A stretch of DNA of 64,000 nucleotides from Anaerohalosphaeraceae bacterium. Lineage in GTDB: Bacteria > Planctomycetota > Phycisphaerae > Sedimentisphaerales > Anaerohalosphaeraceae. Below, piece after piece: positions 30,001 to 33,000 of this stretch. Location of the stretch: positions 600,826-664,825 of the forward strand of contig CAXXSL010000016.1 in NCBI GenBank assembly GCA_963675525.2, written 5' to 3'. Each line of letters opens with the position of its first letter. Position 1 is the first letter of the stretch. Made by a program: the position numbers.

Positions 30001-33000
30001 TTCGTTGGACAAGCCCAACTTATTAATGATGTTTCTGTCTACCATAAATATTCTCCTGTGGAGTCTATTTGTCCGCACTGATGCGCCCCACATTTACGCA
30101 ATCAGCACTAACCTCTGTAAAAGGTTAATAAAAAAATAATGCATTGACCTACGCAGTCAATGCCTTGACTCAAATCCCTTTTCATCATCCTCGGCGTTAC
30201 CGGCATTCGGCCGGTTCGTCATAACTCTCAAGGTTTCGGACAAACTCCCGAATGACCTCATCGGGCGTAGAAGCCCCTGCGGTTACGCCTGCGGTGGCTT
30301 TACCGCAGAGCAATGTTTTATCAAGTTCGTTCCAATTTTGCAAATGATATGTTTGAAAATTGTGTTTTTTGCACAAATCCGCAAGTTTTCGGGTATTGGC
30401 GCTATGAAGCCCACCGAGGACAAACATGATGTCCACCTGCCGGCACAGTTTAACCGCAGCCTGCTGGCGCTCCATTGTTTCCCGGCAAAGCGTGTTGATG
30501 ATTTTCATCTCGGAAAAGCCTCTTCGGGCAATCGCCGCGATCATATCCGCAAAGTGACCCGGGCTTTGGGTGGTTTGACAAATAACACCTAACTTCTTTT
30601 TATTATTAAGCTTATCTAAATCTTCCTCCGTGGCGACAACCTCCACGTCCTCGGTATAGCCGACAACCGCTTTAACTTCAGGATGATTTTTGTCGCCAAT
30701 CATCACAACTTTGTAGCCCTCATCGTAAAGCTGCTGGGCGATTTTTTGGACCCGCTTAACCAATACACAGGTCGCATCCACAATTTTCAGGCCTTTTTGG
30801 TTTATTCTGTCCAGTTCTTCCAGCGTCGCCCCATGCGAACGGATCAACACCGTGCCCGATTGGATGATATCAATCGAATCGACCATTTTCAGGCCGTCTT
30901 TGGAAAGTTGAGCCACAACATCTTCATTATGAATAATCGGCCCCAGGCTGGAGACTTCCTTTTCCTGCTCCAGCGTTTTCTCGGCCAAATTAATGGCATT
31001 CCGCACCCCCGGACAAAACCCGCATTTTTCTGCTACTAATACTTTCATGTCCTCCTTTTATCCAAAAATAACATATTTAGCAAGCTCTATTCAGGGCCGC
31101 CGAAGGTTAGTGACCGGTTCAGTTGCCAGGAAGAGTTCGGTATCTTGGAATTTAGAGTATGGAATTTGGAATTTAATTTACCTTCTGGAGGAAATTTAAA
31201 TTTTATCTTCAATATTTATGATTTTTTTACCAAAAATGCCCCATAATACTACTGATATTTGGATTTTTCAGCATTTGTCCGATAAATACCTAAAGATATT
31301 CCGGCATTTTTACCGATATTTGTTAATGGATATTAATAGTGATAGTGCTGTTTATTAAAATAATATTAAGGTTCCCTGGGTAACGATAAGGAAGAAGCAA
31401 ATGAGAACGATTGCAATTATCAACCAAAAAGGCGGTTGCGGCAAGACCACCGTGTCAATCAACCTATCCTCCGCACTGGCCGCCAAAGGCTATCGAACGC
31501 TGCTGGTTGACATGGACCCGCAGGGCCACTGTGCCGTTGGATTGGCGGTGCCGGAAGAACAGATCGAGCAGAGCATTTATGACGTGCTGATCGGCACCGG
31601 CCGCGGTGAACCAATGCGCATCAACGAGATACTTTGGCAGATATGTGAACGGTTCGAGTTGGCGCCATCGAGTATTGACCTGGCCGCCTTCGAACAGCAG
31701 ATGACCGGTATCGTAGACCGCGAGAACTGCCTGCGAAAAATACTCGACAGCATTCAGGATGACTACGACTACGTGGTCATCGACTGTCCGCCTTCGGTGA
31801 GCCTGCTGACATTCAATGCTTTGCGTGCGGCCACAGATGTCATCGTACCGGTGGAGATGGGATACTTCTCCCTGCACGGTCTCAGCAAGCAGCTCGAAAC
31901 ACTGAGTATCCTCTGCAATCAATGCGATCAACAGATCAACGTTATGGTTTTGGCCAGCATGTACGACATCCGGACCAAAATGGGCCGAGAGATTCTGGCC
32001 GAGCTCAAAAAGCACTTCTCTGCGAAAATGTTCAAGACCGTTGTCAATTTCAACACGAAGCTGAAAGAGGCCGCCAGCCTCGGCCAGCCCATCAGTGAAT
32101 ATGATCCGGCCAGTAAAGGGTACAAGGACTTTTTGACACTGGCCGAAGAACTGGCCGGAACCGACACCCTGACCCATCGAGCCGACCTGGTCAATTCACT
32201 GCAGGCCAAACTGGAAGTTATCAGTGCCAGCGCCGAGGAATTGCTGGCCAAGGTGGAGCCGAAAAAGAAAACCCTGGACGACCAACCCGTCCTGTCGCTG
32301 GACGAAAAACTGGCCGACTTCTACGGCGTCAAACAACTGGATGGGCATGTGATCTTCAGCACGCTTTATCCGCGGGCCAAAACGGTTCATGTGGCCGGGG
32401 ACTTCAACGATTGGATACCCGAAAAGACCGCCTTCGAAAAGATTGACGATTCCGGCAAATGGATGCTGCAGTTGCCGATGGAAAAAGGCACCTATCGTTA
32501 CCGGCTGGTCGTTGACGGCCAATGGCAGCAGGACCCGTATAACCGCATGACCGAGATGAACCCGTACGGAGAAATGAATTCCATACTGTACATCCAATAG
32601 AAAAATTTAGTGGGAAGAGGAAAACGCCGGGATGAGCCGATCACCCCCGGCGTTTTTTTATGGTTGGGTATTAGCCGTTCAGTTCAGCATCCTTCTTGAG
32701 AGCTTTTTCGGTTTGGGCCTTGCGGAAATCGGCCAGAGTTTTGGCCAGTTTCGCATCGCTCAGCGCCAGTATCTGCAGGGCATACACCGCCGCATTCTTG
32801 GCACCGGCTTTACCGATAGCCATCGTCCCGACCGGCATCCCGGGCGGCATCTGAACGGTACTGAGCAGTGCATCCAATCCGCAGGGGCCTTCTTTGGCCT
32901 GCATGGGCACCCCGACGATCGGCAACTGCGAATGCGCCGCCATCGCCCCGGCCAGATGCGCAGCCATCCCGGCAGCGGCAATAATCACCTTGATCCCGTT

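Follow-up and report, generated by a model that had tools for sequence, protein, structure and literature searches.

A Soj/ParA-type ATPase fused to an AMPK-beta-type CBM48 in Phycisphaerae: a candidate nucleoid tether for cytoplasmic alpha-glucan

The window, a stretch of 64,000 nucleotides from an Anaerohalosphaeraceae bacterium (contig CAXXSL010000016.1), contains a gene that joins a Soj/ParA-type ATPase to a C-terminal carbohydrate-binding module of the AMPK-beta type. The features of this locus are as follows, in window coordinates.

30197..31048, minus strand: ispH (LytB), upstream neighbour, divergent, outside the system
31049..31400, no strand: AT-rich spacer (33% GC), common to the fusion gene and the divergent ispH
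31401..32600, plus strand: ParA-CBM48 fusion gene, 399 aa (open reading frame and Pfam)
31401..32156, plus strand: Soj/ParA ATPase domain, aa 1-252 (Pfam, structure matches)
31428..31448, plus strand: deviant Walker A, KGGCGKT (K10 and K15 invariant in 82/82 class and 46/46 other fusions)
31509..31529, plus strand: Motif 2, D37-D39-Q41-H43 (alignment)
31971..31973, plus strand: R191, corresponding to DNA-binding R189 of Soj (equivalence inferred by way of Thermus Soj)
32058..32060, plus strand: K220, corresponding to DNA-binding R218 of Soj (equivalence likewise by way of Thermus Soj)
32157..32321, plus strand: linker, aa 253-307 (predicted helix 259-283, variable stretch, short helix 300-307; model confidence low)
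32325..32597, plus strand: AMPK-beta-type CBM48, aa 309-399 (Pfam, alignment, model)
32621..32659, plus strand: terminator-like inverted repeat, 11 bp with a loop of 14 nt, then a T run (read from sequence)
32671..33177, minus strand: purE (AIR carboxylase), downstream neighbour, convergent, outside the system

Promoter-like matches in the spacer are no more numerous than expected by chance (4 found in the promoter scan, against 2.1 +/- 1.7). The inverted repeat sits between the fusion gene and the convergent purE and looks like a terminator, so that no partner would be co-transcribed with the fusion gene here. The automated repeat scan, which allows loops of at most 8 nt, does not list it. 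The first-pass annotation took the fusion for a real single gene, and this is borne out, since PF13614 and PF16561 are both found in 117 of the best 120 matches to residues 255-399. An assembly artefact as the origin of the fusion is ruled out by these two-domain homologues and by a contig of a second study, which crosses the domain junction without any differing letter.

The Pfam figures reported earlier were reproduced exactly (AAA_31, residues 1-180, E 1.4e-52; AMPK1_CBM, 326-398, E 1.1e-9; CBM_48, 309-380, E 3.9e-7), and both ATPase motifs quoted with them, KGGCGKT and YDIRTK, were found in the translated sequence. The solved structures nearest to residues 2-256 are ParA 8RAY (E 6e-50) and Thermus Soj 1WCV (E 1e-43). 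The AlphaFold model of the fusion protein consists of two folded domains, with a Z of 28.4 between the ParA part and 8RAY, and Foldseek gives 41% identity to a Soj model. The hallmarks of Soj-type ParA/MinD proteins (deviant Walker A with its signature lysine, Motif 2, Walker B) are all present. K10, K15, D37 and D128 are each kept in 82 of the 82 class fusions and D39 in 81; the Motif 2 histidine, which replaces N64 of M. xanthus ParA, is shared with the other two ParAs of this genome. Both basic positions predicted to bind DNA, R191 and K220, are present in this protein. The first is an arginine in 75/82 class and 46/46 outside fusions, the second a lysine in 69/82 class fusions and R or K in 43/46 outside. 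Whole families lack one of them, R191 being replaced by D or E in 6/6 members of family f14 and K220 by a non-basic residue in 12/12 members of f5. ATP-dependent dimerisation, DNA binding and hydrolysis may be predicted from sequence for the fusion ParA. Because the Walker A begins at residue 10, there is no signal peptide, and the CBM should thus be cytoplasmic.

The linker ranges from 33 to 168 aa across families. The module behind it scores above the curated Pfam cut-offs (38.8 versus 26.8 bits for AMPK1_CBM, 30.7 versus 22.4 bits for CBM_48). Queried alone, residues 326-398 have as nearest solved structures the AMPK beta-2 and beta-1 CBMs (E 2.8e-6), and the modelled residues 298-399 adopt a beta-sandwich fold, with Z of 11.7-12.8 to domains of Pyrococcus amylase, branching enzyme and a CBM48-bearing amylase. 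Residues W338, R368, W375, G390 and N393 align with W100, K126, W133, G147 and N150 of AMPK beta-1; in the AMPK CBM, W100G and K126Q are each reported to abolish glycogen binding (PMC6274970). Among 82 class fusions, W338 is kept in 81, R368 in 82, W375 in 81 and N393 in 75 (with D in 5 more), and among 46 fusions outside the class, W338 is kept in 46, K or R at position 368 in 46 and W375 in 45. The earlier claim that one protein combines intact ATPase motifs with an intact AMPK-beta-type sugar site therefore stands, all of these positions being kept, and glycogen binding is a plausible prediction for this site.

The fusion gene is found in 86 of 121 Phycisphaerae genomes and behaves there as a housekeeping gene, with vertical inheritance at the family level and purifying selection. 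Each of the 14 families with more than one member is monophyletic on the fusion-gene tree, on which the family labels need 15 changes, the minimum, versus 59.5 when shuffled. Class-wide vertical inheritance is supported by this, at the family level only, since between families RecA distances do not correlate with those of the other markers, ParB included (Spearman 0.0-0.1). dN/dS is below 1 in 187/187 pairs (median 0.25, maximum 0.76), these pairs being non-independent and the values inflated by saturation at high dS in GC-rich genomes. Over 30 class genomes, mean identity is 47% for the CBM, 43% for ParB, 54% for the fusion ParA and 70% for RecA. The fusion architecture is old; on the ParA-domain tree the 53 sampled fusion domains form one branch (support 100/99), apart from 20 other ParAs. 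Between phyla the distribution is patchy, with a single fused locus among 143 other-class Planctomycetota (E <= 1e-72). No full-length match to the fusion protein was found in 72,556 plasmids, and viral contigs gave one match, to the ParA part alone. The recurrent neighbours in 80 class loci are a partner gene and housekeeping genes. Ten of 144 neighbours match PADLOC models, including one restriction-modification pair (a raw count without a control set), and no defence gene recurs among them.

This partner gene, which encodes a conserved N-terminal helix, lies downstream of the fusion in 59/86 class loci and in 37/46 loci outside the class. Partners of A/D (ParA/MinD) ATPases are reported to act through N-terminal peptides (10.1101/2022.06.09.495121). 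The helix is ParB-like in some lineages only; of the 37 outside partners, 9 score higher on a ParB-peptide matrix than 99% of 2256 control ORFs. The partner diverges fast (16-59% identity), and its families have no Pfam or PADLOC match. In related loci it resembles FlhG/FleN in fold (Z 12.7 to 4RZ2) and has no Walker A; a C-terminal NucS-like fold follows, whose Z of 7.7 to 2VLD falls within the background range of the tool, for a domain not folded alone. Another form of the partner is HTH plus RodZ_C. Fontivita pretiosa is a cultured carrier of the full two-gene form. No partner was found in the present genome, where the sole profile match is an intact FlhG-like ATPase. Four sampled families, that of this genome included, have no partner and yet a well-conserved fusion; they comprise 25 genomes, in one of which the locus lies at a contig end. 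The notion of a "self-contained" ParA thus holds for some lineages, this partner-less family among them, and fails for most loci, which do have a downstream partner.

Alpha-glucan metabolism was followed through seven markers: GlgC, GT5-type, GT3, GH13, GH57, archaeal-type debranching enzyme and phosphorylase. The GT5-type profile, run on 5 genomes only, detects the GT4 protein of this genome, and GH57 matches do not tell branching from amylase activity. Markers are present in 83/86 genomes with the fusion and 34/35 without it, hence no enrichment; as nearly all genomes have them, co-occurrence with glycogen genes is uninformative. GlgC was found in none of the 121 class genomes. Two genomes, G070 (2 contigs, 98% complete) and G088 (100% complete), have an intact CBM and yet none of the seven markers, and a third, G053, has a weak GH13 as its only one. 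The present genome has a cluster of GT4, GH57 and debranching-enzyme genes, plus phosphorylases; since GlgC, GT3, GlgE and GlgB gave no match, synthesis of a branched glycogen is not established here. A local glucan operon around the fusion is ruled out, no glucan gene recurring beside it in the 80 class loci. Outside the class, glgB is found in 29/36 genomes and adjoins the fusion in 4 related loci; within it, a related stand-alone CBM adjoins a phosphorylase gene in 4 genomes. The specific proposal of the first-pass annotation, glycogen granules as the cargo, is not supported, given the lack of enrichment, the absence of GlgC and the two markerless genomes. A link between the fusion and glycogen is plausible.

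The best explanation, still tentative, is that this housekeeping ParA-type ATPase would be an ATP-switched tether joining the nucleoid to a cytoplasmic alpha-glucan, either glycogen or a polymer like it, as supported by catalytic motifs, basic DNA-binding positions and sugar site, all intact. With ATP, ParA would dimerise and attach to DNA without sequence specificity; its two CBMs, carried by flexible linkers, would hold glucan particles, and hydrolysis would free the tether, so that particles would be kept on the nucleoid or distributed over it and divided between daughters. In the ancestral two-gene form, the N-terminal helix of the partner (ParB-like in some phyla) would dock on the dimer and trigger hydrolysis. 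As the family of this genome has no partner, the fusion probably acts here as a slow tether and not as a motor that actively spaces its cargo. A wider formulation is more doubtful: an ancient, multi-phylum, non-immune ParA system that would actively place and partition storage alpha-glucan particles on the nucleoid, with the cargo domain on the ATPase (the reverse of ParB/McdB), switched by the ParB-like helix of the partner in most lineages and without a dedicated activator gene in this family. In known systems the activator sits on the cargo and not on the ATPase, which speaks against a tether, as does the loss of DNA-binding positions throughout f14 and f5. The bodies of the partners (a dead FlhG fold and a dead nuclease fold, or HTH plus RodZ_C) also suggest a target other than glucan. 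In E. coli, unmanaged glycogen is reported to gather at the old pole and to skew the nucleoid and the division site (PMC12706056). If the fusion does tether or space such particles, it would be an organiser dedicated to glycogen and would offer, in one gene, a means of positioning a polymer inside a cell.

Glycogen might instead be a signal, the CBM reporting the carbon store as in AMPK, whose CBM is described as a glycogen sensor (PMC6274970), while the ATPase and its partner would position or regulate the motility machinery, the division site or the start of replication. We consider such a switch unlikely, although none of the partner folds (the NucS-like one being near background) is related to glucan and some families drop the DNA-binding residues and retain the CBM. 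The four partner-less families nevertheless keep a well-conserved fusion, no motility or division gene recurs beside it in 80 loci, and G070 and G088 seem to be devoid of the glucan that this mechanism needs.

The intact CBM of those markerless genomes, the general absence of GlgC and the lack of an adjacent glucan gene in the class would all fit another ligand, an alpha-glucoside or a small malto-oligosaccharide borne by some machinery or structure that the ATPase positions. This is improbable, as the kept residues are exactly those of the AMPK glycogen site, at least one alpha-glucan enzyme is encoded in 83/86 fusion genomes, and the markerless genomes may either have lost these genes recently or be incomplete.

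Li, Burroughs and Aravind have suggested an immune role (bioRxiv 10.64898/2026.10.19.760177): the CBM would sense infection-linked carbohydrate or polysaccharide depletion, with ParA multimerising so as to curb the infection. Their preprint invokes a sporadic cross-phylum spread, fast divergence of the CBM and, in the partners, inactive ParA and REase domains. Patchiness between phyla and both dead folds are confirmed here, together with fast divergence of the partner. In Phycisphaerae, however, the premise of a fast CBM does not apply, the module diverging no faster than ParB, with purifying dN/dS values; family labels change at their minimum, plasmids and viral contigs gave no full-length match, and the neighbours are housekeeping genes with no recurring defence gene. 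Immune sensing appears accordingly quite improbable in this class, and tying stored glucan to the chromosome is more likely. The two readings predict opposite outcomes, which are cheap to check.

The least probable role is chromosome partition, with glucan as a modifier, for a ParB that is orphan in 29/30 genomes and keeps its LG[RK]GL peptide in 30/30: although the fusion is no less Soj-like than other ParAs and partner-less families could use this peptide, the 35/121 genomes without the fusion have another ParA, and the second ParA (beside ribH-nusB here) keeps D110, E117, L150 and L152 in 9/9. In the fusion, by contrast, the D110 position is D in 20/82 and that of E117 is occupied by varied residues. 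The ParB-contact residues reported for M. xanthus ParA are Y81, E82, D110, E117, L150, L152 and L155 (PMC12462528). The present fusion retains the hydrophobic pocket and part of the acidic site, and the better fit of the second ParA supports a role of the fusion apart from ParB. Here parB lies about 130 kb from the fusion gene, which does not discriminate, since no ParA adjoins parB in 29/30 genomes.

Compared with known systems, the architecture is already on record, the immune sensor being the possibility raised by the preprint and the glucan-nucleoid tether the reading proposed here. The first-pass annotation had suggested that this would be the first ParA/MinD ATPase to carry a carbohydrate cargo domain of its own, a claim anticipated by that preprint of 22 October 2026, whose "CBM-containing system" (ParA-AMPK1_CBM, clade ConB5) has the identical architecture, ParA plus C-terminal AMPK1_CBM. 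The inactive ParA and REase genes of its second variant match the partner of related loci; they are absent from this genome and described as optional, so that membership stands, as the core-only form. Differences lie in the proposed immune function against a CBM that is not fast in Phycisphaerae, in the partner of this class, where dead ParA-like and nuclease-like domains are in one protein and the dead fold is nearest to FlhG/FleN, unlike the separate genes of ConB5, and in the N-terminal helix seen here, without mention in the available ConB5 description. Literature searches on ParA with CBM48 and glycogen, on glycogen-granule positioning by ParA/MinD and on ParB LGRGL returned no experimental study, and also missed the ConB5 preprint; a search on Phycisphaerae glycogen granules gave no study of such positioning, judging by titles and abstract openings.

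Chromosomal Soj/ParA proteins (M. xanthus 8RAY, Thermus Soj 1WCV, H. pylori Soj 6IUB) share with the fusion the fold, Walker A, Motif 2, the basic DNA-binding positions and a hydrophobic peptide pocket (V133, L135, F138). The fusion differs by its C-terminal CBM, by the lack of an adjacent parB and by branching apart from the second ParA, and its family as a whole does not conserve the acidic site for the ParB arginine. McdA/McdB and other ParA/MinD pairs resemble its relatives, with an orphan ParA-type ATPase and a downstream partner carrying a conserved N-terminal peptide; unlike them, this genome has no cognate partner with an activating peptide, and the ATPase itself bears the domain presumed to bind cargo. 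The AMPK beta CBM48 positions W100, K126 (as R), W133, G147 and N150 are kept, on a P-loop ATPase instead of a kinase subunit, with T148 replaced by E and L146 by Y/F. A 2024 review of ParA/MinD names no storage polysaccharide as cargo, the words glycogen, granule and storage having 0 occurrences (PMC11407121). PHA granules do have nucleoid tethers, PhaM/PhaF, in which one protein is reported to join the granule to non-specific DNA binding and to secure granule inheritance (PMC9049629). These are passive, without ATPase, and unrelated in sequence and fold, with a polyester cargo; the tether proposed here would be switched by ATP and hold an alpha-glucan.

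The fusion is a lone gene in the window, with ispH as its divergent and purE as its convergent neighbour, and is followed by an inverted repeat that resembles a terminator:

31401–32600, + strand, ParA–CBM48 fusion ORF, 399 aa

Elsewhere in the window (34185–36336), an ECF sigma factor is flanked by a DUF3352-like exported protein and a small membrane protein, the latter anti-sigma-like by position. Residues 1–252 of the fusion form a Soj-type ParA (Pfam AAA_31, E 1.4e-52; 8RAY, E 6e-50; Z 28.4 to 8RAY for the predicted model), and residues 309–399 an AMPK-beta-type CBM48 exceeding both curated Pfam cut-offs. 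By alignment, W338, R368, W375, G390 and N393 correspond to W100, K126, W133, G147 and N150 of AMPK beta-1; W100G and K126Q have each been reported to abolish glycogen binding by the AMPK CBM (PMC6274970). On the ParA side, an alignment to Thermus Soj suggests that R191 and K220 are equivalent to two basic residues of B. subtilis Soj, R189 and R218 (PMC3778016). The first-pass annotation held that this is a ParA fused to a CBM and no assembly fusion, which is borne out: both domains are present in 117 of the best 120 matches to the C-terminal part, and the junction is covered by a contig that comes from another study. Both domains are intact and have been conserved together for long.

An orthologue was found in 86 of 121 Phycisphaerae genomes (completeness ≥85%) and is missing from 35. 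It is a complete one-frame fusion in 82; the four others, excluded from the alignment counts, are broken by a frame change (G083), stop at a contig end (G013) or have the ParA part without CBM in the fetched region (G105, G119). The linker of the aligned class fusions varies from 33 to 168 aa. Among 143 Planctomycetota of other classes, eight matches at E ≤ 1e-72 included one fusion, a minimum figure. With a distant seed, fusions were retrieved from loci titled Desulfobacterota, Eisenbacteria, Nitrospirota, Acidobacteria, Gemmatimonadota, Omnitrophota and Gammaproteobacteria; 46 loci from outside the class were analysed. In a tree of the ParA domain only, 53 sampled fusions make up one branch (100/99), separate from 20 other ParAs. 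The family is already catalogued in a bioRxiv preprint (10.64898/2026.10.19.760177), the consulted part of which describes a ParA–AMPK1_CBM fusion (ConB5) to which genes for an inactive ParA and an inactive REase may be added; the source-genome fusion is a partner-less member.

Directly after the fusion, 41 of the first 80 loci carry a conserved partner gene of about 470–540 aa without Pfam match. Its predicted model has an N-terminal helix, then a fold like that of FlhG/FleN (Z 12.7 to 4RZ2) but lacking Walker A, and lastly a domain with weak resemblance to NucS (Z 7.7, near background) at the C-terminus. The partner lies downstream of 59 of the 86 class orthologues, part of these by weak profile scores only, and is absent downstream in all members of f1, the family of the source genome (n=12), f6 (n=8), f18 (n=4) and f19 (n=1). 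Outside the class, a downstream gene with the same helix occurs in 37 of 46 loci, its body being dead MinD-like, nuclease-like, or HTH plus RodZ_C. In nine of these 37 loci, a matrix derived from 26 ParB N-terminal peptides ranks the helix beyond the 99th percentile of 2256 control ORFs. N-terminal peptides are reported as the means of action of ParA/MinD partners (10.1101/2022.06.09.495121; PMC12462528), and we infer that the partner helix binds the fusion ATPase. The HTH plus RodZ_C variant is seen at L272:1614-2966 and in related Desulfobacterota loci; glgB adjoins on the opposite strand in the fetched regions L272, L274, L276 and L284.

The fusion is real and well conserved, and for its function there are only candidate readings. 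The likeliest job, to which we give slightly less than an even chance, is holding or spreading glucan particles on the nucleoid; such positioning is the leading idea, still unproven. From ParA biology, the ATP dimer would bind the nucleoid, the two CBMs on their linkers would bind glucan, and the partner helix, where present, would trigger release.

The glucan genes of the class bear on this reading. GlgC was found in none of the 121 Phycisphaerae genomes, and the storage-glucan route looks non-canonical. The GlgC-less class mostly keeps an archaeal-type debranching enzyme (107/121) and an alpha-glucan phosphorylase (102/121). A GT3 synthase occurs in 12 of 30 genomes tested; GlgB is above cut-off in 9 of 42 class genomes, and has matches in 29 of 36 outside genomes. 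The consulted part of a genomic review of the class names glycogen solely as a predicted substrate (PMC11266412). In the source genome, alpha-glucan turnover is likely, judging from its gene content:

L081:2472-7145 (G000:C11:318471-323144), GT4, GH57 and archaeal-type debranching enzyme cluster
G000:C11:472730-475267, long alpha-glucan phosphorylase, split over three reading frames
L086:595-6120 (G000:C20:120594-126119), 1841-aa protein whose C-terminal end resembles GlgA/GT5

The first is the best candidate for glucan storage. The long phosphorylase, whose match is whole in 11 of 11 sampled family relatives, is here a pseudogene or an assembly error; a short phosphorylase is also present. 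Searches of this genome for GlgC, GT3, GlgE and GlgB gave no match. A stand-alone 91-aa AMPK1_CBM protein (L085:763-1038; G000:C11:482762-483037), which shares 30% identity with the CBM of the fusion, is encoded 7.5 kb from the long phosphorylase, and a similar small gene adjoins phosphorylase in G113, G120, G022 and G010. GH13 and GH57 enzymes that appear to be secreted are clustered at G000:C5:38958-51208, likely a starch-use locus.

Of the 86 genomes that carry the fusion, 83 have at least one of seven glucan markers, as do 34 of the 35 that lack it, so the markers are not enriched with it. G070 and G088 have none of the seven and G053 only a weak GH13, and yet the CBM is intact in all three. 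These genomes, together with the loss of the basic DNA-binding residues in families f14 and f5, keep the rivals alive. A switch gated by glucan is possible but doubtful, and it is improbable that the CBM binds something else.

Immunity, which the consulted part of the preprint infers from rapid CBM divergence, seems quite improbable. The partner does diverge quickly. The fusion itself, however, shows a housekeeping pattern. In a tree of 82 fusions, all 14 families with at least two members are single branches, and family labels change 15 times, the minimum (59.5 when shuffled). Over 30 genomes, mean identity is 70% for RecA, 54% for the fusion ParA, 47% for the CBM and 43% for ParB, with tree lengths of 6.5, 11.7, 16.2 and 19.6. 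Median dN/dS is 0.20 (ParA) and 0.25 (CBM), maximum 0.76, in the 187 within-family pairs passing the dS filter, and the sugar-site residues are nearly invariant. No plasmid record matched 80% of the protein, and the single viral-contig match covers the ParA part only. Among 144 neighbour ORFs, the majority taken from 17 of the first 80 loci and counted with no control, 10 matched PADLOC models: one restriction-modification pair and eight read as shared-domain matches. These results weaken the published immune reading in Phycisphaerae; a defence role in other phyla is possible.

That the fusion is the chromosome ParA is very unlikely. Besides the fusion, the source genome has two further Soj-like ParAs, one next to ribH-nusB and the other within a PilM/secretin cluster; of 30 genomes, 29 have ParB as an orphan. 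The ribH-nusB ParA keeps D110, E117, L150 and L152, residues that contact ParB in M. xanthus (as reported in PMC12462528), in 9 of 9 sequences, and this type is the best ParA in eight of nine fetched regions from fusion-lacking genomes (pilus type in one), so that the fusion is probably not the chromosome ParA; in its family the acidic contact positions are not conserved. The ParA most likely to work with the orphan ParB is the ribH-nusB one; the order ribH-nusB-parA is conserved in L082 (G000:C16:23750-25681), L089 and L090. The PilM/secretin-cluster ParA (L083:1065-6479; G000:C16:257064-262478; also in G043 and G008) is followed by a small gene of its own, whose 248-aa product has a short N-terminus that looks amphipathic and matches T2SSB/CdsD_C at its C-terminal end; the two are a candidate ParA–partner pair that would position a pilus or a secretion system.

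Holding glucan on the nucleoid would be useful, since glycogen is reported otherwise to skew the nucleoid and division site (PMC12706056). In that role, the fusion would correspond to the tethers PhaM and PhaF (PMC9049629), but with an ATP switch.
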